Shown: one piece after another, positions 31,941-45,769 of the stretch
Position numbering within the stretch: the first letter of the stretch is position 1
Layout of the letters: each line of letters starts with the position of its first letter
Assembly: GCA_965283725.1 (NCBI GenBank)
Contig: CBDIPT010000001.1
Span: forward strand, 719,730 to 783,729
Source of the DNA: Limisphaerales bacterium
Lineage (GTDB): Bacteria > Verrucomicrobiota > Verrucomicrobiia > Limisphaerales > JAEYXS01
DNA length: 64,000 nt
Direction of reading: 5' to 3'
Position numbers and translations under genes: made by a program
Notes under the pieces: model-generated
What the model saw: the letters and a program-made list of their open reading frames with translations, nothing else
Database searches by the model: none
What the model was told of the DNA's origin: nothing

Positions 31941-32025
31941 GCGGTTATGGCGAAATTGGCAGACGCGCTACCTTGAGGTGGTAGTGGGGTAACCCGTGCA
32001 GGTTCAAGTCCTGCTAACCGCACCA
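31941..32025 (+). tRNA. tRNA-Leu (anticodon GAG), class II with a long variable arm and encoded CCA
   Basis: The cloverleaf was folded by hand. The acceptor stem is GCGGTTA/TAACCGC. The anticodon stem is CTACC/GGTAG with loop TTGAGGT. The T-arm is GCAGG-TTCAAGT-CCTGC. The discriminator is A, followed by CCA. Confidence 0.9.
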
Positions 32026-33675: not shown

Positions 33676-33694
33676 TAACATCCGGTTTTCTCGA

Positions 33695-33731
33695 ACGGCG
33701 TGACTGCTTGGGCAGTCACGCCGTTTTTTTA
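33695..33731 (+). terminator. Rho-independent terminator after rho
   Basis: AACGGCGTGACTGC-ttgg-GCAGTCACGCCGTT forms a 14-bp stem followed by TTTTT. Confidence 0.7.
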
Positions 33732-33795: not shown

Positions 33796-34851
33796 ATGCC
33801 GGATACTTCGCCCGGTTCACACAGGGTAAAAAGCATGGCCAAGAAATCCCAGAAGCCGGTCAAAGAAGAGCGGAATATGCCCGTAACGCGTCCGCCGTTT
33901 GAACGGATGATGCGCATCCATCAGGAATTGCAGTCGGGCAAGTATCCGAACGCCACCTCGCTAGCGCGTGAACTGGAGGTCAATCCCAAGAGCATCCACC
34001 GGGATATGGAATTCATGCGTGACCGTCTGGGCTTGCCGGTCGAGTATGATTCGGTCAAACGTGGCTATCACTATACGGAAGAGGTTGGAGCCTTTCCGAC
34101 CCTGCAGATCACGGAAGGAGAATTGTTCGCCCTCTTGGTGGCGGAAAAGGCCCTGCAACAATATCGCGGCACCAGTTTTGAGAAGCCTTTGTTGTCGGCC
34201 TTCAAAAAGATGGCTGCCTCTTTGCCAGACACCGTTTCGCTGAACCTGGCGGATTGGGAGCAGACGATCTCCTTTCGGACCACGGCGGAACCCATCTTGA
34301 ATTTGGAAGTTTTTGACCTGCTGGGGAAAGCAGCGGGAGCGTGCAAACAGCTTAGGTTGCAGTATCGCAAGCCCGGTCAGAAAGAGCCGGAAGAACGGAT
34401 TGTTGACCCGTATCATCTGGCGAACATCAACGGGGAGTGGTTTCTCTTCGCCTATGATCATCTGCGGAAAGATTTACGGACCTTCGCTCCGGCGCGGATT
34501 ATCAGCGCGGACCCGACCGGAAAGAAATTCACGCGTCCGGAGAAGTTCTCCTTGGAACGGCGCTTGCGGGATAGCTTCGGCGTTCACTCCGGCCAGAAGG
34601 AGTTTGCCGTGGTCATCCGCTTTGATGAATTTGCGGCGGATTACATCCGCGAGAAGCGCTGGCATCCTTCGCAGCAGCTCAAGGAACTCGAGGGCGGAGG
34701 TGCTGAACTGACGATGAAGCTCTCCAGTCTGATCGAAGTGCAGCGTTGGATTTTGGGTTGGGGCGGTCATGCCCAAGCCGTCGAGCCACCCGAACTGATC
34801 GAGGCGGTGAAGACGGCGGTGGCAGCGTTGGGCAAGAGCTTCGAGAAGTAG
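33796..34851 (+). CDS. HTH-WYL-WCX type transcriptional regulator (PafB/PafC-like architecture)
   Basis: An N-terminal winged HTH (RMMRIHQELQSGKYPNATSLARELEVNPKSIHRDMEFMRD) is followed by a WYL-like core (DPYHLANINGEWFLFAYD) and a C-terminal extension. The start is uncertain (33796, 33835 or 33877). Confidence 0.8.
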   Translation: MPDTSPGSHRVKSMAKKSQKPVKEERNMPVTRPPFERMMRIHQELQSGKYPNATSLARELEVNPKSIHRDMEFMRDRLGLPVEYDSVKRGYHYTEEVGAFPTLQITEGELFALLVAEKALQQYRGTSFEKPLLSAFKKMAASLPDTVSLNLADWEQTISFRTTAEPILNLEVFDLLGKAAGACKQLRLQYRKPGQKEPEERIVDPYHLANINGEWFLFAYDHLRKDLRTFAPARIISADPTGKKFTRPEKFSLERRLRDSFGVHSGQKEFAVVIRFDEFAADYIREKRWHPSQQLKELEGGGAELTMKLSSLIEVQRWILGWGGHAQAVEPPELIEAVKTAVAALGKSFEK

Positions 34852-34912
34852 ATGATGGAGAGTGTGTTGCTAGGCCAGTTGCGTTCCGTCCAAAAGAGAT
34901 TACTGTGCCTCT

Positions 34913-36628
34913 ATGGCTGGCCAAAAGAAGCAGTCAGGCGGTTCCTCGCAGCCGCCTAAACCGGAAGAAGCCGTTCCCGGCGAATCCGCGGTGCCTCCTA
35001 TTTCCGATATCCTAAGTCGCGAAGAGCTGGATTCTCTTTCCACCCTGCAGTTGGTCGATCTCATCGCCAGCAAGATGCCGCTGCGCAGCAGTGTTTTGCT
35101 GGATCTAGTTTATTTGCGCGACCGCATCACGGCCATCGAGGAGATGAATGATCAGGCGCGTGAGGTCATCGAGAAGCTGGATCAAGCGGTGGAGAAGCTT
35201 CGCTCGCCGGCATTTCGCGTGGGGACGTTTCTCGCACCGTTGGCGCAGGAGCAGGTGCACATCTGTCTTGGTGGTACGGATTACGTATGCAAGGTGGATC
35301 CGGCGATGCCCATCACGAGTTTGCAGATCGGCCAGCGTGTGTTGTGCAATGAAGCGTTCGTGGTGATCCGCAGTCTGGGTTTTGATCAACACGGGCCGAT
35401 CGTGCGGGTGGATGAGACGCTTTCCGATGGCCGCTTGCGCATCGGTCAGGAAACCGGCGCGATGCCGTTGGTGGTGCAACGCTCGGCGCTCTTGCAGAAG
35501 GAGAAGCTGAAATCCGGCATGGAAGTGCGGCTGGATGCGAATCAACGCGTGGCCCTCGAAGTCATCGGCCACGGCAAGCGAATTGACCGTACTTTGGATG
35601 TCGTAGGCGAGGTGCCATGGTCTTCCATCGGTGGACAAACCGAGGCGGTGAAATCTATTCGTGATGCCATCGAACTGCCGTTCCTGCATCGCGAACTCTA
35701 CAAACGGTTTGATCATCGCATCCCGAAAGGTTTCCTGCTGCATGGGCCGCCGGGTTGCGGCAAGACGCTCTTGGGTAAAGCGACGGCTTACAACCTGCGC
35801 CAGCAGTTGAAGCAGCAAACGGGTGTGGATCATCCGGAGTTCTTCCTGCACATCAAGGGGCCGGAGCTGCTCAACATGTGGGTGGGCGAATCCGAGCGGC
35901 AGGTACGTGATCTTTTCCAGCAATGTCGTGAGCGGGCGGCGGAAGGCTATCTCGCGTTTCTCTTCATGGATGAGGCGGAATCGCTTCTAGGTGTGCGGCA
36001 TGGCGGCCGGTTCAATTCCATGTCGAGCACGTTGGTGCCGATGTTCTGTGCAGAGATGGATGGCTTGGAAGCGCTGGCAAATGTTGTCGTCATCCTAGCG
36101 TCCAATCGGGCGGACTTGATTGATCCGGCGATTTTGCGACCGGGGCGCATCGACCGGAAAATCAAGGTGGCGCGGCCAGACAAAGAAGGAGCGCGGGCTA
36201 TTTATGAGATCTATTTACGCGATACCTTGCCATTGGCCGAACCGGGTGCGGAACTGGCCCGGCGCATGACGGAAGCGCATTTTGCGAAGACGGAGGAGAA
36301 CGCATTTCTTGAAGTGAATTACCGGAGTGGACGGAAAGAGACGTTCTATCGCGGCGATTTTGCGAGTGGTGCGATCATTGCAGCCGTGGTGGAGCGTGCG
36401 AAAGCCGGAGCCATACAGCGATCGATTACCAGTGGTAAGGAATCACCGATCACATATGAGGATTTGTTGGCGGCGTTGCGACAGGAGTATGCGGAGAGCA
36501 GCTTGTTCCCGTCGAATGACATGACGGAGGATTGGTTGAAGCTTACGGATCTGGACCCGGAGAACGTGGCGCGCTTGACGCCGATCCGGCCACGCAAGGC
36601 AATGGGGTATGCGTCACAAATCGTGTAG
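34913..36628 (+). CDS. Proteasome-associated AAA+ ATPase (ARC/Mpa-like)
   Basis: It has an N-terminal coiled coil (RDRITAIEEMNDQAREVIEKLDQAVEKL) and an OB-like region. The AAA module has Walker A (GPPGCGKT), Walker B (FLFMDEAES) and ILRPGRIDRKI. The C-terminal region parallels Mpa (GDFASGAIIAAVVERAK). Confidence 0.85.
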   Translation: MAGQKKQSGGSSQPPKPEEAVPGESAVPPISDILSREELDSLSTLQLVDLIASKMPLRSSVLLDLVYLRDRITAIEEMNDQAREVIEKLDQAVEKLRSPAFRVGTFLAPLAQEQVHICLGGTDYVCKVDPAMPITSLQIGQRVLCNEAFVVIRSLGFDQHGPIVRVDETLSDGRLRIGQETGAMPLVVQRSALLQKEKLKSGMEVRLDANQRVALEVIGHGKRIDRTLDVVGEVPWSSIGGQTEAVKSIRDAIELPFLHRELYKRFDHRIPKGFLLHGPPGCGKTLLGKATAYNLRQQLKQQTGVDHPEFFLHIKGPELLNMWVGESERQVRDLFQQCRERAAEGYLAFLFMDEAESLLGVRHGGRFNSMSSTLVPMFCAEMDGLEALANVVVILASNRADLIDPAILRPGRIDRKIKVARPDKEGARAIYEIYLRDTLPLAEPGAELARRMTEAHFAKTEENAFLEVNYRSGRKETFYRGDFASGAIIAAVVERAKAGAIQRSITSGKESPITYEDLLAALRQEYAESSLFPSNDMTEDWLKLTDLDPENVARLTPIRPRKAMGYASQIV

Positions 36629-36739
36629 CGCAGGTTGTCAACCTGCTGTGTCGCCGACTGGCAGTCGGCGTGGCGTTCGAATATTTAACGGTCTGCAGAC
36701 CACCGATCTGCGACACAGCAGACAGCCAGTCTGCGCTAC
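36625..36739. repeat. About 115-nt imperfect palindromic (REP/MITE-like) intergenic element overlapping the arc stop codon
   Basis: The termini GTAGCGCAG (36625-36633) and CTGCGCTAC (36731-36739) are reverse complements. Inner arms CTGCTGTGTCGC (36644-36655) and GCGACACAGCAG (36710-36721) also pair. A nested hairpin CGCCGACTG/CAGTCGGCG lies at 36652-36670. Confidence 0.6.
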
Positions 36740-36761
36740 AACGGACTGAGTTTTTAGGGAT

Positions 36762-38278
36762 ATGGATACGCTGCCAATTTTATTCGGGATTGAGACCGAG
36801 TATGGCATCGCGCGGGATGGCGCGGAGGATCTGGACGTGGTTCAGGAGTCCATCGATCTCGTACGCAGTGCGGCCAGCGCGGGCGTGAAGCAGCGCTGGG
36901 ATTATTCGGCAGAAGATCCGCATCTGGACATGCGCGGCTTTAGGGTGGTTGAGCTGCGGCAGGATTACGATGAAGCGAATTACACCCGGCAGGATGAAGA
37001 ACGCGAACTGAGTTTTCAGGAAATCAAAAGCGATCATGTGTTGCCGAACGGGGCGCGCTTCTACAATGACCACGCGCACCCCGGTACTGCACGCCGGAAT
37101 GTCGTTCGTTTGCGGACATCGTCCTGCAAGACCGCGCGGGAGAACGCATCGTAGAGGCCTGTGCGCAGAAGCTTTCTGAGCGGCGGGGCAGTAAAGTGCG
37201 GGTCTATAAGAACAACACGGACTTTTGGGGGCACAGCTATGGTTGCCATGAGAATTACCTGCTGCCGCGTTCATTAGCCTGGCAGACGTTGGCGGAAGGA
37301 ATGGAAGCGTTTCTCGTCACACGCCAGATCTACGCCGGGGCAGGGAAGTTTGGCATCGAAGCGGAAGACTCCTTTGAAGCGCCCGGATTTCAGATCGCGC
37401 AACGCAGTGACTTTTTCAGTGAGTTGCAGAGTGTGGACACGATGCAGCGGCGGCCCATCATCAATACCCGTGATGAGCCGCATGCGAATGCACGGCTCTA
37501 TCGCCGTTTTCACGTCATCATCGGCGATGCGAACATGTCGCCCTTTGCCACGCGCTTGAAAGTCGGAGTGACGGCACTCGTGCTGGAAGCCATGGTGCTG
37601 GATGCCAAGCGCGCGCATCCGCGTTTGAAGGAACCTTTAGTGGCGTTACCATCCATTTCACAGGATGCCAGCTACAAATGGGAAGTAGCGTTGATAAATC
37701 GCAAGCAGAGCACGGCCTTGGAGATACAACGGCATTACTTGGCGTGTGTGAAAGAAGTGTGTGATTTGAGTTCGGTTGAGCGGCAGGAATTGGTGGCGGA
37801 TTGGGAAACGGTGTTGAATGATCTGGCACTGGATTACCGGAAGTGCCGCGACCGACTTGATTGGGTGGCGAAGCTGATGCTCGTCAAAGAATTCCAAGCG
37901 GCGGAGAAAGTGGCGGACGATGATCCGTGGTTGCGCAGTTTGGACTTGGCTTACCATCTGGTAGATGAAGCGGAAGGGTTGCATGCTGGTCTGGAACACG
38001 CGGGCGTGATGCGTGGGGTGCCGGACGAAAAGGCCGTGATGGAGGCGGCGAACCAGCCGCCGAAGGATACGCGGGCATGGATTCGGGGCCGTTGCGTGGC
38101 GAAGTTCGCCGATGCTGTCATCTCTGCCCAATGGGACCATGTGACCCTGCGCGGCAAGCGGGGGCGGCTGCGCATTTCGTTGCTCGATTTATTCGCGCCG
38201 GAAGATATTTTGCGCTATGCTCAATGCATAGAGCGGGCGGTGACGCCTGATGACCTGCAAGCCATTGCGGAAACCTAG
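36762..38278 (+). pseudogene. dop: Pup deamidase/depupylase Dop-like (Pup-ligase/glutamine-synthetase-like fold), interrupted by a 1-nt frameshift
   Basis: The N-terminus is FGIETEYGI...NGARFYNDHAHP, after which the frame is lost at about 37083. The -1 frame continues with EYCTPECRSFADIVLQDRAGERIVE...VYKNNTDFWGHSYGCHENYLL and runs to the end at 38278. Restoring one base (CCC-GnG-TAC) gives the family motif HAHPEYCTPEC. Confidence 0.8.
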
Positions 38279-38282
38279 CTAT

Positions 38283-38456
38283 ATGCCTGATCAAACCCAA
38301 AAACAACGTCCGACCCCGCCTGCACCCGGCGGCGGTGGTGGCGAGGGGCCACGGGAACCCCAGGTGGAGAAGCCGAACACGGAAGACCTCCTGAAGCGGA
38401 TGCGCAAGGTCGATCCCGACCAGGCACGCCGCTACCGTCAACGCACCGGCCAATAA
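38283..38456 (+). CDS. pup: Pup/UBact-like small modifier (57 aa, C-terminal ...RQRTGQ)
   Basis: It is a small ORF exactly at the pup position between dop and prcB. It has a G-rich, disordered N-terminal half, a short helix-prone C-terminal half and a terminal Gly-Gln. The ATG at 38283 lies 5 nt after the dop stop, and the ORF ends 1 nt before prcB. Confidence 0.7.
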   Translation: MPDQTQKQRPTPPAPGGGGGEGPREPQVEKPNTEDLLKRMRKVDPDQARRYRQRTGQ

Positions 38457-38457
38457 C

Positions 38458-39231
38458 ATGAATACCGGGATAGCAGGGGATTTCTTAGGATTGCTGGCTC
38501 AGAACAATCTGCGACCGCTCTCTGCGGAGGCATCATCGCGAGCGCCGGAGCAGACGCATGCCACGACCGTTTTCGCCTTTCGTTTTCGTGATGGCGTTTT
38601 GGTGGCAGGTGATCGCCGCGCGACGGCCGGCAATGTCATCGTGGCCGATGATGTGACCAAGATCATCGAGATTGATCGTTCTTCCGTGCTGGCCATCGCG
38701 GGCGTTCCAGCCATGGCCTTTGAGATGGCCCGGACAATGCAGGTTTCCTTTGCCTACTATCGCCGCAGCCAGCTTCAGCCCTTGAGTCTCGAAGCGAAGG
38801 TGCGGGCTTTGGCGCGCTTGCTGCGCGAGAATCTGCCGCTGACCTTGCAAGGTGTTGGCGTCGTCGCCCCGCTGTTTGCCACCGTGGAAACGTTGGGAGA
38901 CAAGGTGCTCCCGCGCATTTATTTTTACGATCCACTGGGCGCGCAATTTGAAGCCGTGAACTTCGCGGCGTCTGGTTCCGGCTCTGGCACCGTTCGCAGC
39001 GTGCTCAGCTTTCAAGAGCGTTTCGGTGAAGTGAAACCCTCGGCGATGACGCTCAACCAAGCCGTGCGGTTTGCGCATAATGTTTTGATGGTGGCCTCGG
39101 AATTTGATGCGGCCACGGGCGGACTTGATCCTTTGCGCACGGTGTGGCCGGTCATCAAAGTGCTCGATGATAAAGGTGTTCGTGACTTGCAAACAGCGGA
39201 ACATCTCACCGCGCAGAAGGAGGGGGCATGA
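38458..39231 (+). CDS. prcB: Proteasome beta subunit with propeptide
   Basis: ...QTHA/TTVFAFRFRDGVLVAGDRRAT shows Thr1 after the propeptide, the G-D-x-R-A-T block, and IAGVPAMAFEMAR. Confidence 0.85.
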   Translation: MNTGIAGDFLGLLAQNNLRPLSAEASSRAPEQTHATTVFAFRFRDGVLVAGDRRATAGNVIVADDVTKIIEIDRSSVLAIAGVPAMAFEMARTMQVSFAYYRRSQLQPLSLEAKVRALARLLRENLPLTLQGVGVVAPLFATVETLGDKVLPRIYFYDPLGAQFEAVNFAASGSGSGTVRSVLSFQERFGEVKPSAMTLNQAVRFAHNVLMVASEFDAATGGLDPLRTVWPVIKVLDDKGVRDLQTAEHLTAQKEGA

Positions 39232-39965
39232 CCGAGGAACCATTTCGCTGGTTGGAGGCGATCGCGAATCGCCGGGATTACGTGCAGCAACAGATCGCGA
39301 CGGGCTCGCCGGTCTTCGCGGTGAGCTTGGAGGTGGGCATCTTGTTGCTCGGCGTGGGCAGTGGGCAATCGAAAGTGTTCGAGATATTTGACCGGCAGGC
39401 GATGGCGGCATTGGGGCATCCGGCGGATATCGAGCGTGTCCGCCAAATCCTCATTGATGCCGCGCATCTGGAAGCGTTCACGCGGGCGGCGGCGGATGTG
39501 AATGTGCGGCGCTTGGTGAGCTTTGGCCTGAGTCCGCAGCTCAAGCAAAGCTTCGAGCAAATCTTTCAGGCCCCCTTCATGATTGATTTGCTGCTGGCGG
39601 AAGTCGCGGAACGTCCGGCTTTGGATGTACTGGTGAAGGTAAATTTTGATGGCGGTTTCCAGATCCAGCATGGTGGTGTGATGGTGGCGGCGGCCAAACC
39701 GGAGCAGGTCGCGACGACGGCTGAATGGTTGAAGAAGAACATCGATGCCAAGCTGCCACCGTCTAAAGCGGCGTTGATCTTGCTGGTGGCTTGGGATGCC
39801 CTGGTGCGCAATCAAGCATTGCCGGAGACGCTGGATTTATCCGGCGGTCTGCCGCCTGCCTGCTTGGAACAGCTTAATGGCAAAATGGTGGAGGCGGCTT
39901 TGCTCGAACGGCAAGGCAGCAGCGCGGCGCGCTACACACCCTTGATTCCCTTGTTAACCGGTTAA
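39228..39965 (+). CDS. prcA: Proteasome alpha subunit
   Basis: It has an ATGA overlap with prcB. The Ntn-fold pattern lacks an N-terminal Thr (GSPVFAVSLEVGILLLGV...FEIFDRQAMAALG). Size and position are as for bacterial PrcA. Confidence 0.8.
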   Translation: MTEEPFRWLEAIANRRDYVQQQIATGSPVFAVSLEVGILLLGVGSGQSKVFEIFDRQAMAALGHPADIERVRQILIDAAHLEAFTRAAADVNVRRLVSFGLSPQLKQSFEQIFQAPFMIDLLLAEVAERPALDVLVKVNFDGGFQIQHGGVMVAAAKPEQVATTAEWLKKNIDAKLPPSKAALILLVAWDALVRNQALPETLDLSGGLPPACLEQLNGKMVEAALLERQGSSAARYTPLIPLLTG

Positions 39966-39969
39966 TGTT

Positions 39970-41388
39970 ATGAACCGCATCGTCGGCCTGGAGACCGAGT
40001 ATGGTTGCCTGATCAACGAGACAGGTGCGCCGCCGGGATTGATTGGCCGGGTGCGTAACTGGTTGTTCGAGGCGAATCGATTCGGCCTGCCCGATCTGCA
40101 CCAACGTGATTGGGACGAGCCGGCGGGCAATGGGGGATTTCTCTTCAATGGCGGTCGCGCGTATGTGGACATGGGCCATCTGGAATACTGCACGCCTGAA
40201 TGCCTCACCGTGCGGGATGTCATCAAGTATGATCGCGCCGGGGATGCGATGCTCAATCTGGCCTTGCAGCAGTTGGATTTCACGGAGGTCGCCGGCTTCG
40301 TGCGAAACAACGTGGACCACTATTCCGGTGCGACGTTTGGTTGCCATGAGAATTACCTCGTCCGGCGGCAAGCGCCGTTGACCGAAAAGAATGTCCTGTC
40401 TTTGCTCACGTTTTTGACGGTGAGGTTATTGATGGTCGGTGCGGGCAAGGTGGGCGCCTCACCAGGCGTGGAGCAGGGGAACGCGCCGTTCCCTACAGGC
40501 AAAGTGCCCAAGTTTCAGATCAGCCAGCGGGCGGATTACATCAACAACGATCTCTTTGAATGGGTGCAATTCAATCGCGCTATCATCAATACCCGCGATG
40601 AACCGTTGGCGGATGGCCGGAAGTATCGTCGTTTGCATCTCCTGCATGGCGATACCTCGGTCCTGCCTTCAACGCTGGCCTTGAAGGTGGGCACCGCCGC
40701 GCTCGTGCTCGACTTGTTAGAGATCGATCATTTGCCAGAGATTGCCTTGGCGGATGCGGTGATGACTTTTCACACTTTGTCACATGACATCGACGGACCT
40801 TGGCTGGTGCAGTTGAGTGACGGACGGCAAATGGATGCCTTGGAGTTGCTCGACCTTTACCGGCGGAAGGCACAGAGCGAGTTCGGCGGGCGCGATGCCG
40901 AGACAGACGATGTGCTAAGACTTTGGCAGGGAACCATCGAGCGGCTGTGCAAAAAACGGGAAGAGCTGGTAGGGGTGGTGGACTGGGTGACCAAACGGTG
41001 GTTGTTTGAACAATTTATTGCCGAGCAAGGTCTGGACTGGGGTGATCCTTGGCTGAAGTCCCTGGATCTGGAATTCCATCATATCGCCCCGGGACGTGGA
41101 TTGGGGCTATCGTTGGACAAGGCGGACCTCGGGTGGTCCCCTGCGGGTGAGAGTATTTTGCAAGCCATGCAACAAGCGCCGGATAATACCCGGGCAGGAT
41201 TGCGTTCCCGCCTGATGCACGAGTTGAATCACCGGGCGTTGCGGTATTACGTCGATTGGGAAGTGATCGATGCCGCCGGGACGAAGACCTTGGAGCTCTC
41301 CAACCCCTTTCAGGTGGAATCGCCGGAAGCGACGGCTTGGTTGAAGGCGTTAGATGAGGCTCCCCCAGTGACACCTGAGCCTGAATAG
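39970..41388 (+). CDS. pafA: Pup-protein ligase PafA-like
   Basis: VGLETEYG, GGRAYVDMGHLEYCTPEC, GCHENYLV and INTRDEPLAD form the same fold family as the dop-like gene. It lacks the long insertion seen after the first beta-hairpin of the dop-like paralog. Confidence 0.8.
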   Translation: MNRIVGLETEYGCLINETGAPPGLIGRVRNWLFEANRFGLPDLHQRDWDEPAGNGGFLFNGGRAYVDMGHLEYCTPECLTVRDVIKYDRAGDAMLNLALQQLDFTEVAGFVRNNVDHYSGATFGCHENYLVRRQAPLTEKNVLSLLTFLTVRLLMVGAGKVGASPGVEQGNAPFPTGKVPKFQISQRADYINNDLFEWVQFNRAIINTRDEPLADGRKYRRLHLLHGDTSVLPSTLALKVGTAALVLDLLEIDHLPEIALADAVMTFHTLSHDIDGPWLVQLSDGRQMDALELLDLYRRKAQSEFGGRDAETDDVLRLWQGTIERLCKKREELVGVVDWVTKRWLFEQFIAEQGLDWGDPWLKSLDLEFHHIAPGRGLGLSLDKADLGWSPAGESILQAMQQAPDNTRAGLRSRLMHELNHRALRYYVDWEVIDAAGTKTLELSNPFQVESPEATAWLKALDEAPPVTPEPE

Positions 41389-42959: not shown

Positions 42960-43048
42960 GGTAAACGCGCTTAAGGCTGTTCAATTTGAACTGCTGCGGG
43001 ACCCATGGAGACGACGCGGAAAAGAGCGGAGATTAGAGAAAAATTAAT

Positions 43049-45769
43049 ATGCCGGTTCGTATTTACGACATTGCAAAGAAGCTGGGAATTGAAAGCAAGG
43101 ACGTCCTTGCCAAGGCAAAAGAACTCGGCATAAACGAGGCGCGGGTCGCGTCTAGTTCCCTCGACAAGATCACCGCGGAATATCTGGAGTCGCAGTTCAG
43201 CGGCGCGACAGCGCCTGACAGTGCGCCAGCGCCGGCTGCGGAAGCCGCGCCGATCAAGATCATTTCGGCACCACCACCTGAGCCAGAGCCGGAGCCGACC
43301 GCGCCAGAGCCGGTGGCCGAGGAGCAGGCACCCGCCGAAGAAGTTTACGAAGCGCCCGCCGCCGAACCCGCTGATGCACCCGTGGAAGCCCGTGCCGATG
43401 CAGAGCCCACCGCCGAGGTGGACGATGCGCCTGCGGCGCAAGCCCCGGTTGCTGAAGCTGCCTCTGCGCCAGCCACGCAACCAGAAACCGCCAAGACCCC
43501 GGAAGCTCCGAAACCGGAAACCGCCAAGCCGGCGGATGCCGCGCCCAAGCTCGGTGAGAAGATCGGTTTTATCCAGTTGCCCAAGAAACCCACGCCTCCC
43601 GGCGCGCCAAAAGTTGGCGACAAGGTGGGTTCCGTGCAATTGCCTCCGCGTCCCGGCAGCAATCAGCCGCAACGCCCCGGTGGTCCGCAACAGAACCGCC
43701 CCGGTCAGCAACAGCCGCAACAACGCCCCGGTGGTCCGCAACAATTTCAGCAGCGTCCCGGTGGACCGCAGCAGAACCGTCCTGGTCAAGGCCAAGGTCC
43801 CGGCCAAGGCCGTCCCGATTCCCGTTTTGGCAATCGTCCCGGTGGTGGCGGATATCAGCAACAGCAACCTTTCGGTCGTGGTCCGGCCGGTCAAGGTGGT
43901 CCGCAGCAGCAACGTCCCGGTCAGCCGCAGACGGGCAACCGCCCCGGTGCGAACAAGTCCGATCTCCCGAGCGATGCTCCGGTGATCACCATGAAGCCGC
44001 CCATCGTGGTGCGCGATCTGGCCGAACAATTGAAACGCAAGCCGTTCCAGTTGATCGCCGACCTCATGGAATTGGGCGTGTTTGCGAACGTCAATCAGGC
44101 GGTCGAAGAAGACATCGCCAAGCGTCTCTGCGCCAAGCACGGCGTCAAGTTCGAGCTGGAGAAGCGCGAACGTGGCGGCGGGGTGGTGCACGCGCCGGTC
44201 AAGAAGATCGAGATCGATGCCGACGACAAGCCGGAACAGCTCAAGCCGCGTCCGCCAGTGGTCACCATCATGGGGCACGTTGACCATGGCAAGACGACGT
44301 TGCTCGACAGCATCCGCAAGGCGAACGTGGTCTCCGGTGAAGCCGGTGGCATCACGCAGCACATCGGTGCTTACACGATCGCTTTCCCGCATCCGGAGCG
44401 CAAGGGCGAGATCCAGCAGATCACGTTCCTCGACACTCCTGGTCACGCAGCGTTCAGCGCTATGCGTGCCCGTGGGGCGAACGTCACGGATATCGTGGTG
44501 CTCGTGGTGGCGGCGAATGACGGCGTGATGCCGCAGACGTTGGAAGCCCTCAGCCACGCGCAAGCGGCCAACGTGAAGATCATCGTGGCCGTCAACAAGT
44601 GCGATCATCCGAACGCGAACCCGATGAAGGTCCGCCAGCAGTTGCAGGAAAAAGGCCTGGTGCCGGATGATTGGGGTGGTGAAACGATTTATGTCGATTG
44701 CTCCGGTCTCACGAAGCTCGGTGTGGACAAGCTGTTGGAGATGATCCTCCTGCAGGCGGACTTGCTCGAACTCAAGGCGAACCCGGACCGCAAGGCCAAG
44801 GGCAACGTCATCGAGTCCGGTCTCCAGCCTGGCGGTCCGACCGCTACGGTGCTGGTGCGCAAGGGCACGCTCAAGGTGGGCGATGTCATCCTCTGCGGTG
44901 AGCACTACGGCAAGGTACGTGCGCTCATCAACGAAGAAGACAAGCGCATGAAGGAAGCCGGTCCGTCCCACGCCGTGAAGGTCTTGGGTCTGAACGGTGT
45001 GCCGGAAGCCGGTGCTGAATTCATCGTGGTGGACAACGAAAAAGCCGCCCGCGAAGAAGCGGAGAAACGCGAACTCGAAGCCCGCGCCGAAGCCTCGCAA
45101 GAGAGCCGTGCCAAGGTCACGCTCGAGACGCTGTTCAGCACGCTGGCCGAAAGCTCGGCCAAGGTGCTCAAGATCGTGGTCAAGGCGGATACCCAAGGCT
45201 CGATCGAAGCCATTGTGGATGCCTTGAACAAGATCGAGTCCGACAAGGTCTCGCTCGAAGTCATCCATTACGCGGTGGGCACCATCACGGAATCCGATGT
45301 CTTGCTGGCCTCGGCTTCCAAGGCCATCGTCCTCGGCTTCCATACCCGCATTGATAACGGCGTGTCTGATGTCGCCAAGCGGGAAGGAGTCCAGATCAAG
45401 CTTTACTCGATCATCTATGAGTTGATCGACCAAGTGAAGGACGCGATGTCCGGCCTGCTCGACCCTCTGATCAAAGATGTGGTCGTGGGCTCGGCCGAAG
45501 TGCGCCAGCTCTTCGAATTGTCCAAGGGCGGTTGCGTGGCCGGTTGTGCCGTCACTTCCGGGCGTATCGTCAAGGGCAAGGTCCGGGTCATGCGCCGCAA
45601 GAGCCTCGTGTTCGAAGGCGGTACCACCTCGCTTCGCCGCTTCCAGGACGAAGTCAACGAAGTGCGCTCCGGCATGGAATGCGGTATCCGTCTGGACGGG
45701 TTCAACGAATTCCAGATCGGTGACGTCATCGAATGCTTCTCGCAAGAGAAAGTGGCGCAGAAGCTCTAA
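43049..45769 (+). CDS. infB: Translation initiation factor IF-2
   Basis: The G-domain motifs are [21 protein letters not shown] and NKCD. It has the C-terminal IF-2 domains and a long, low-complexity P/Q/G-rich N-terminus. Confidence 0.95.

Follow-up and report, generated by a model that had tools for sequence, protein, structure and literature searches.

The actinobacterial Pup-proteasome system, as known from Mycobacterium tuberculosis, comprises Mpa, Dop, Pup, PrcB, PrcA, PafA, and PafBC. Its counterpart in loci of Gram-negative phyla reportedly received the tag name UBact from Lehmann, Udasin, Livneh, and Ciechanover in 2017. Pup-like loci outside Actinobacteria, for example in Methylacidiphilum (Verrucomicrobia) and in Nitrospirae, were described by Iyer, Burroughs, and Aravind in 2008 (PMC2588565), who classed such tags as Pup orthologs; curated models now separate UBact. 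Verrucomicrobia are also among the phyla with Dop/PafA homologs in Hecht et al. 2020 (PMC7947786). Here, we analyze a locus of this kind in a 64-kb stretch of the contig CBDIPT010000001.1 from a Limisphaerales bacterium (hereafter, the window; positions are counted from its first letter). The array at 33796-41388 very probably encodes a UBact-proteasome system, which in Verrucomicrobiota corresponds to the Pup-proteasome system of Actinobacteria. The initial annotation of this DNA was correct both in recognizing a Pup-like (UBact) conjugation and 20S proteasome locus in a genome of the Planctomycetes-Verrucomicrobia-Chlamydiae group and in its statement that such loci had been noted bioinformatically in Verrucomicrobia, as they were by Iyer et al. 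2008 (PMC2588565). The locus is an ordinary further example of this catalogued cluster, with a lesion in dop.

Nothing essential separates it from the UBact loci of Gram-negative phyla, with which it shares a tag that passes both UBact models and ends in R-T-G-Q, as well as Dop/PafA homologs, an ARC-type ATPase, and 20S genes that adjoin one another; what sets it apart is that dop is frameshifted and that the upstream WYL gene occurs in part of the clade only. With the actinobacterial system it has in common the same seven families in the relative order mpa-dop-tag-prcB-prcA, a Dop-loop in Dop, and a propeptide followed by Thr1 in the beta subunit. It differs from that system in its tag, which is a UBact ending in RTGQ rather than GGQ; in its ATPase, which ends in [IV][IV] and not in GQYL; in its ligase, which falls into a separate clade and lacks the PafA alpha-loop signature; in its regulatory genes, a single upstream WYL gene taking the place of a pafB and pafC that lie downstream of pafA; and in the position of pafA directly after prcA. 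Like the non-actinobacterial loci of Iyer et al. 2008 (PMC2588565), it belongs to a group that is sporadically distributed outside Actinobacteria, with tags of 50-90 aa and a C-terminal G[EQ].

We assigned families by Pfam (E ≤ 0.01) and NCBIfam hidden Markov models (HMMs) and by matches in the Protein Data Bank (PDB), and we compared the locus with related loci, numbered L001 and onward. The map of open reading frames (ORFs) and the HMM searches yielded seven co-directional gene families on the + strand in one tightly spaced array, WYL-ARC-dop-UBact-prcB-prcA-pafA. Upstream, the array is bounded by an intrinsic terminator after rho (33693-33726, +; a 15-bp stem with nine GC pairs, followed by TTTTTTT), which marks the upstream limit of the transcription unit, and downstream by the nusA-infB operon (from 41691). 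Within the locus, a promoter and terminator scan gave counts at chance level, the rho terminator excepted. The ORF coordinates and strand of the initial annotation agreed with the ORF map, and its spacing was exact throughout: UBact stops at 38456 and the ATG of prcB lies at 38458 (TAA-C-ATG, a 1-nt gap), prcB runs into prcA by an overlapping ATGA (39228-39231), and a 4-nt gap separates the prcA stop at 39965 from the pafA ATG at 39970. The same 4-nt spacing is found between dop and UBact. The count of seven co-directional genes holds for the families and their direction, but these are not seven intact genes, as the Dop-like gene is interrupted; the description of the locus as complete is accordingly not correct for this sequence, in which dop is frameshifted at 37083. 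Outside dop, a reading of the sequence found all of the catalytic residues that we checked to be intact, and both Pup_ligase paralogs retain the GhExE motif, the catalytic Asp, HxEY, GCHENY, and IINTRDEP.

The tag gene (38283-38456, +) encodes 57 aa that scored 80 bits against PF20513 (cutoff, 27.8) and 81.5 bits against the NCBIfam equivalog model NF033388 (cutoff, 35). Both curated models thus named outright as UBact what had been annotated as a Pup-like protein ending in GQ. The Pup model PF05639 did not match the tag even at E ≤ 10, and the C terminus, ...RRYRQRTGQ, ends in TGQ and not in the GG[QE] of Pup. The small ORF is found again, in the same place, in 20 related loci, a conservation that had been put forward as a check on its identity. 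The homologs in these loci end mostly in Gln and in a few cases in Glu (motif ...RYRQR[TS]G[QE]), and the C-terminal half of the protein, 29 residues (ELLKRMRKVDPDQARRYRQRTGQ), is nearly invariant among them.

The ATPase gene (34913-36628, +) encodes a Mpa/ARC-type proteasomal AAA ATPase in which a helical N-terminal region precedes two OB domains (Pfam Prot_ATP_ID_OB_N and Prot_ATP_ID_OB_C), the AAA domain (Pfam AAA), and a C-terminal domain. Its residues 46-555 align with residues 39-584 of M. tuberculosis Mpa at 318 bits, its Walker motifs are intact, and it reaches 428 bits on TIGR03689, under the cutoff of 504.75; the domains and the alignment bear out the proposed ARC/Mpa-like AAA ATPase.

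The beta subunit of the 20S core, PrcB (38458-39231, +), scored 90.5 bits against the Pfam Proteasome model PF00227 (cutoff, 22.4) and 163.6 bits against TIGR03690 (cutoff, 191.9), and it matched the Rhodococcus and M. tuberculosis beta subunits at E values of 1e-28 to 1e-24. The mature beta chains in the PDB begin at the residue aligned with Thr36 of PrcB, after ...THA|TTVFAF, and this alignment supports the initial annotation of a Thr1 that is exposed behind a propeptide (HA/TTVFAF), predicted here to comprise 35 aa. Asp17 and Lys33, counted from Thr36, are present in the sequence along with Thr1. The processing site is conserved as HA|TT, QA|TT, or EG|TT in related loci, and the Ala at position -1 is also seen in several Actinomycetota loci. 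The alpha subunit, PrcA (39228-39965, +), is divergent but real. It has no Pfam match at E ≤ 0.01, a point on which its annotation falls short, yet TIGR03691 gave 56 bits (E = 3e-15; cutoff, 139), and a profile of 13 PrcA orthologs retrieved from the PDB only the Rhodococcus and M. tuberculosis alpha subunits (E = 9e-15), both in support of its assignment; prcA also occupies the syntenic position in related loci. In the ortholog alignment, Lys49 of PrcA is invariant. We take it to be the equivalent of the activator-pocket Lys52 of M. tuberculosis PrcA (by our own numbering), in which case this presumed pocket residue would be a further likeness to the actinobacterial system.

Both Pup_ligase-family paralogs matched the Pfam family model at ~365 bits, the check on which their annotation had been made to depend. 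The Dop-like paralog, which is split into a 5' fragment (36762-37154, +) and a 3' part (37079-38278, +), matched Pup_ligase at positions 2-90 with the former and at positions 126-440 with the latter (367 bits). On TIGR03688, where the 5' fragment aligned at positions 3-99, the two fragments reached 64.4 and 364.8 bits, both below the cutoff of 492.3. The Dop-loop of ~40 residues is present, aligned with residues ~40-85 of 4b0r, and its RWDY...D.RGF motif is conserved as RWDY...DMRGF. By comparison with Table 1 of Hecht et al. (PMC7947786), the protein also carries the Dop-type D-H-A after the catalytic Asp (NDHA) and the Dop-type Pro103 (HPEYCTP). When the gene is repaired by restoring one base, it encodes 505 aa, and this product matches Dop (4b0r, Acidothermus) at 331 bits and PafA (4b0t) at 212 bits. 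It is 41% identical to actinobacterial Dop and 37% to PafA, and it clusters with Dop rather than PafA, with moderate support (66% bootstrap) for a split of all Dop from all PafA sequences. The claim of a Dop-like enzyme is therefore upheld by the Dop-loop, the Dop-type residues, and the 331 versus 212 bits, while the gene that should encode it is frameshifted.

The second Pup_ligase-family enzyme (39970-41388, +; 365 bits over its full length) lacks the Dop-loop, with ~50 residues between GLETEYG and YVDMGH compared to ~85 in the Dop-like paralog. Lacking a Dop-loop and being the sole candidate in the locus, it is termed here the presumed UBact ligase and not a demonstrated PafA ortholog. Its PDB matches favor PafA (4b0t, 219 bits) over Dop (196-202 bits), and on the NCBIfam models it scored 273 bits for TIGR03686 (PafA; cutoff, 551.3) and 267 bits for TIGR03688 (Dop). 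We compared it with the PafA-specific positions of Table 1 in Hecht et al. 2020, i.e., the alpha-loop residues H188, W190, E191, G192, S194, S195, A196, R199, and S200, together with L63, the V65 insertion, G66, S67, A72-T73-A74, F54, and D439; only the equivalents of F54, G66, T73, and D439 are found. In a neighbor-joining (NJ) analysis of 42 sequences with bootstrap bipartition counts, the enzyme and its relatives formed a clade of their own with 100% support. The initial label of a PafA-like ligase hence stands as far as the family and the missing Dop-loop are concerned, but the PafA part of it is weakly supported by the sequence, with nearly equal scores and a separate clade. Likewise, the suggested phylogeny of the two paralogs against actinobacterial Dop and PafA did return the Dop/PafA split as the best-supported arrangement, but placed the second paralog in its own clade. 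An AlphaFold model of this enzyme, built from 34 sequences with the question of whether the alpha-loop is helical, reached a mean predicted local distance difference test (pLDDT) score of 61, with values below 50 across the active-site region, and was not used.

The lesion in dop lies in the Glu codon of HPEYCTPEC, from which a single base is absent at 37083. The 5' fragment carries the GhExE motif, the Dop-loop, and the catalytic Asp and reads ...FYNDHAHP in frame 0 before it leaves the frame and runs, out of frame, into a stop 24 codons past ...NDHAHP; the other frame goes on with ...YCTPECRSFADIV... and is open from 37079, with GTG at 37196 as its first possible start. In the nucleotide alignment, the window reads CCCG-GTAC where six relatives (L001, L002, L003, L004, L006, and L008) read CCCGAATAC or CCAGAGTAT. 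The codons of H-P-E-Y follow CAC-CC[CAT]-GA[AG]-TA[CT] in six of the six, as compared to CAC-CCC-G-GTAC, one base short, in the window. Both halves of dop lie in one frame in every related locus.

The missing base may belong to the organism or to its assembly, and we regard the two as about equally likely. A genuine recent mutation, to which we give a chance just short of even, would leave a crippled system in which UBact-Gln is not deamidated and conjugates are irreversible, with the locus inactive or starting to decay. It is favored by the position of the missing base outside any long homopolymer (CCCC-G[A]G-TAC) and by the lack of a second dop in the 64-kb window. It is also favored by the quality of the surrounding sequence: The 64-kb ORF map holds no other obvious split gene, and a Joint Genome Institute (JGI) metagenome contig (L081; 98.4% nucleotide identity), which encodes exactly the same PafA-like protein, differs from the window by only two gap openings across the 11.8 kb that they share and has no stop codons in the genes compared codon by codon (the dop 3' part to nusA). 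With so few indels and no other split gene, the assembly does not look indel-prone. On the other hand, 398 codons 3' of the lesion remain open, dop is intact in all six relatives, and an assembly or polishing error would also take the form of a single consensus indel. Moreover, the ratios of replacement to silent codon differences against L001 are 0.26 and 0.23 for the two dop fragments, similar to those of the neighboring genes (0.25-0.40; 0.25-0.28 for ARC, UBact, and prcB), so that the lesion, if real, is recent. An assembly or sequencing artifact, with the dop of the organism intact and working, has an even chance in our estimate. What speaks for it is that one base has gone from an otherwise fully conserved ORF (92% amino acid identity to L001), at a Glu codon that is invariant in the relatives, with no sign of relaxed selection; what speaks against it is that no independent sequence of the strain spans the site, L081 beginning ~450 nt downstream of 37083, and that look-ups of the ARC and WYL proteins and of the truncated 130-aa Dop fragment returned no record. 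We also considered that both frames might be joined by a programmed -1 slip of the ribosome at the CCCC run, where tRNA-Pro could re-pair on C-CCC. This extremely improbable explanation was rejected, given that HPEY would lose its invariant Glu to Arg, that a canonical X XXY YYZ heptamer is absent, and that the relatives all encode Dop in one frame.

The reading of the locus as a working counterpart of the actinobacterial system has to face several further observations beside the frameshift. All components except UBact score below the NCBIfam equivalog cutoffs, which were built on Actinobacteria, and are relatives, not strict equivalogs, of the actinobacterial proteins as judged by sequence. 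The ATPase ends in ...GYASQIV and lacks the GQYL docking motif, whereas Mpa requires its C-terminal GQYL for opening the 20S gate (PMC8142254). This is a clear departure from Mpa at the sequence level, and one that is common to the family: The C-terminal residue pair is hydrophobic in all 35 UBact-type ARC orthologs ([IV][IV] in 34, MV in L005), without a penultimate Tyr, whereas ARC ends in GQYL in 20 of 20 loci of the GQYL type in our set. Two Nesterenkonia loci have an ARC that does not end in GQYL, and there tblastn did not find prcB or prcA. For the second Pup_ligase paralog, the alpha-loop reads YINNDLFEWVQFNR, so that the entire PafA signature of this loop is absent, the V65 insertion is missing, a Dop-like CTP stands in place of ATA, and the grouping with PafA was obtained in only 66% of the NJ bootstraps. 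These features could indicate that the loop-less paralog is not a PafA-type ligase, either being a second hydrolase or activating UBact-Gln and ligating it too, with a division of labor unlike that in Actinobacteria. In support of this, the protein shows the same identity (~34%) to the Dop of Verrucomicrobia and to both the Dop and the PafA of Actinobacteria, its PafA and Dop HMM scores lie close together, its discriminating residues are a mix of Dop-type and PafA-type ones, and an engineered Dop/PafA hybrid takes Pup-Gln directly (PMC7947786). We nonetheless consider it unlikely, in view of the absent Dop-loop, the slightly higher scores of the PafA structures, the bootstrap preference for the Dop/PafA split over a grouping of the paralog with its own Dop by lineage-specific duplication (21%), and the need of a tag system for a ligase, for which the locus offers no other candidate.

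Apart from the lesion, the dop 3' part showed a local excess of differences from L081. Between window positions 37536-38235 and positions 1-700 of L081, we counted 3 to 9 nt differences per 100, while the contig is otherwise 98-100% identical, with 0 to 3 differences in almost every 100-nt bin of the genes near dop. Seven of the 42 differences in this part change the amino acid. The pattern suggests that the dop allele was recombined between strains.

The first gene of the array (33796-34851, +) encodes a single regulator of 351 aa with a helix-turn-helix (HTH)-WYL-WCX architecture (Pfam WYL, 64 bits; WCX, 60 bits; HTH_11 below its cutoff). Its true start is probably at 33835 (MAKK...) and not at the ATG at 33796, because relatives begin at the equivalent of Met14 (MAKK/MAKR...). 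The best PDB matches were PafBC of Arthrobacter aurescens (6SJ9; E = 6e-11, WYL domain only) and PafB of Mycobacterium smegmatis (7P5X; E = 3e-8, full length), and with this architecture and these matches the annotation as a PafBC-like WYL regulator is confirmed. The regulator shares with PafBC the domain architecture and the linkage to a tag-proteasome locus; it differs in being a single gene upstream of ARC, with neither a PafB/PafC pair nor a fusion downstream of pafA, in its low similarity, and in being linked in the closest sub-clades only. A WYL gene lies upstream of ARC in L001-L004, L006, and L008. The WYL-ARC spacer measures 61 nt in the window, compared to ~330 nt in L003 (5537-5871), where it is rich in short GC-rich hairpins, suggestive of further insertions resembling repetitive extragenic palindromic (REP) elements. 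Just upstream of ARC, the motif GCCAGTTGCGTTCC...AGATTACTGTG is conserved among the window, L001, L002, and L003, apart from a few substitutions. The ARC-dop spacer (36629-36761, +) holds a palindromic REP-like element of ~110 nt. Its inverted arms, 46 nt long, are imperfect; it also contains two perfect palindromes of 8-9 nt, and its RNA fold reaches -62.7 kcal/mol (z = -4.3). The palindrome occurs in the window and, with its arm sequences swapped, in L006; it is absent in L001 and L002, where the spacers are ~20 nt long. The window contains no further copies, and Rfam matched only tRNA in it. The element is probably an accessory insertion, similar to REPs or miniature inverted-repeat transposable elements (MITEs), and does not belong to the core of the system.

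To place the locus among its relatives, we scanned one genome per species, which yielded 580 Dop relatives. The closest (88-92% amino acid identity) come from uncultured Verrucomicrobiota metagenome-assembled genomes (MAGs), and the next (60-70%) are labeled Limisphaerales, Pedosphaera, or Verrucomicrobiales. The full order rho-WYL-ARC-dop-UBact-prcB-prcA-pafA is kept in L001, L003, L004, L006, and L008, and ARC/dop-UBact-prcB-prcA-pafA without a detectable WYL gene recurs in ~15 further Verrucomicrobiota loci and in one Armatimonadota locus, in agreement with the synteny that the initial annotation had proposed to examine in related Verrucomicrobiota. The annotation had also stressed a layout more compact than the mycobacterial one. 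The regulator does sit upstream and pafA does directly follow prcA, but this compactness is not special, as it is common to every close relative and as several Actinomycetota MAG loci (L058, L061, and L071) are equally tight, with ARC-dop-prcB-prcA-second ligase in ~6.5 kb. At E ≤ 1e-20, the PafA-like enzyme matched over 5,500 database proteins; among its closest relatives, many are annotated as "proteasome accessory factor PafA2 family protein" or "proteasome accessory factor A," and those named by NCBI are mostly from Verrucomicrobiota. A different arrangement was found in L011, L015-L022, and L024-L051 (Verrucomicrobiota, many of them Chthoniobacterales), which have a Dop-like gene, mostly with ARC just upstream, but neither UBact nor prcB, prcA, or a second ligase in the 8 kb around dop; in L015, the genes after dop are unrelated. 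These ARC-dop-only loci represent either a system whose genes lie apart in the genome or one reduced to ARC and Dop.

In the surroundings of the locus, a tRNA-Leu(GAG) lies at 31941-32025, between a TPR-protein gene on the minus strand and rho. Downstream, the infB product has a long low-complexity N-terminal region that is rich in Pro, Gln, and Gly. Two antisense ORFs, at 42971-45745 (-, 924 aa, opposite infB) and 38533-39411 (-, 292 aa, opposite prcB/prcA), are artifacts of G+C-rich coding strands and not genes.

What the sequence shows is that the parts are present and look catalytically competent. The pathway that we propose is inferred at each step from homology to Pup, Dop, PafA, Mpa, and PrcAB, as the literature that we searched contained no experimental report on any UBact system, conjugation to lysines included. 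The Dop-like enzyme would deamidate the Gln end of the disordered 57-aa UBact to Glu, and the loop-less paralog would then use ATP to phosphorylate the gamma-carboxylate of this Glu and join UBact to lysines of the substrate. UBact would be captured by the ARC hexamer, which would unfold the conjugate and feed it into the alpha7-beta7-beta7-alpha7 core of the 20S proteasome for degradation. Dop would also take the tag off again. The WYL/WCX protein would act as a ligand-responsive transcription factor, as PafBC does. A bolder version of this scheme, in which UBact systems are not plain copies of the Pup system, with ARC docking via the hydrophobic dipeptide [IV][IV] and a loop-less Dop/PafA intermediate using UBact-Gln directly, strikes us as quite improbable; if it were true, a strain with a truly broken dop could still tag proteins, albeit irreversibly.

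As a discovery, the locus carries little weight, for Pfam and NCBIfam already cover the system, reports of it date from 2008 and 2017, environmental Verrucomicrobiota commonly carry it, and annotation of the tag by curated HMMs is by now automatic. The frameshift in dop is a warning against labeling this copy of the locus "complete" without a check of the reads; if the deletion is real, the activation of UBact-Gln and the removal of the tag would be lost. The value of the locus is as a pointer to UBact systems, which are experimentally untouched in the literature searched, and the comparison of ~35 loci brings out two testable differences from the mycobacterial paradigm: the absence of a GQYL docking motif in the ATPase and a mixed Dop/PafA signature in the presumed ligase.

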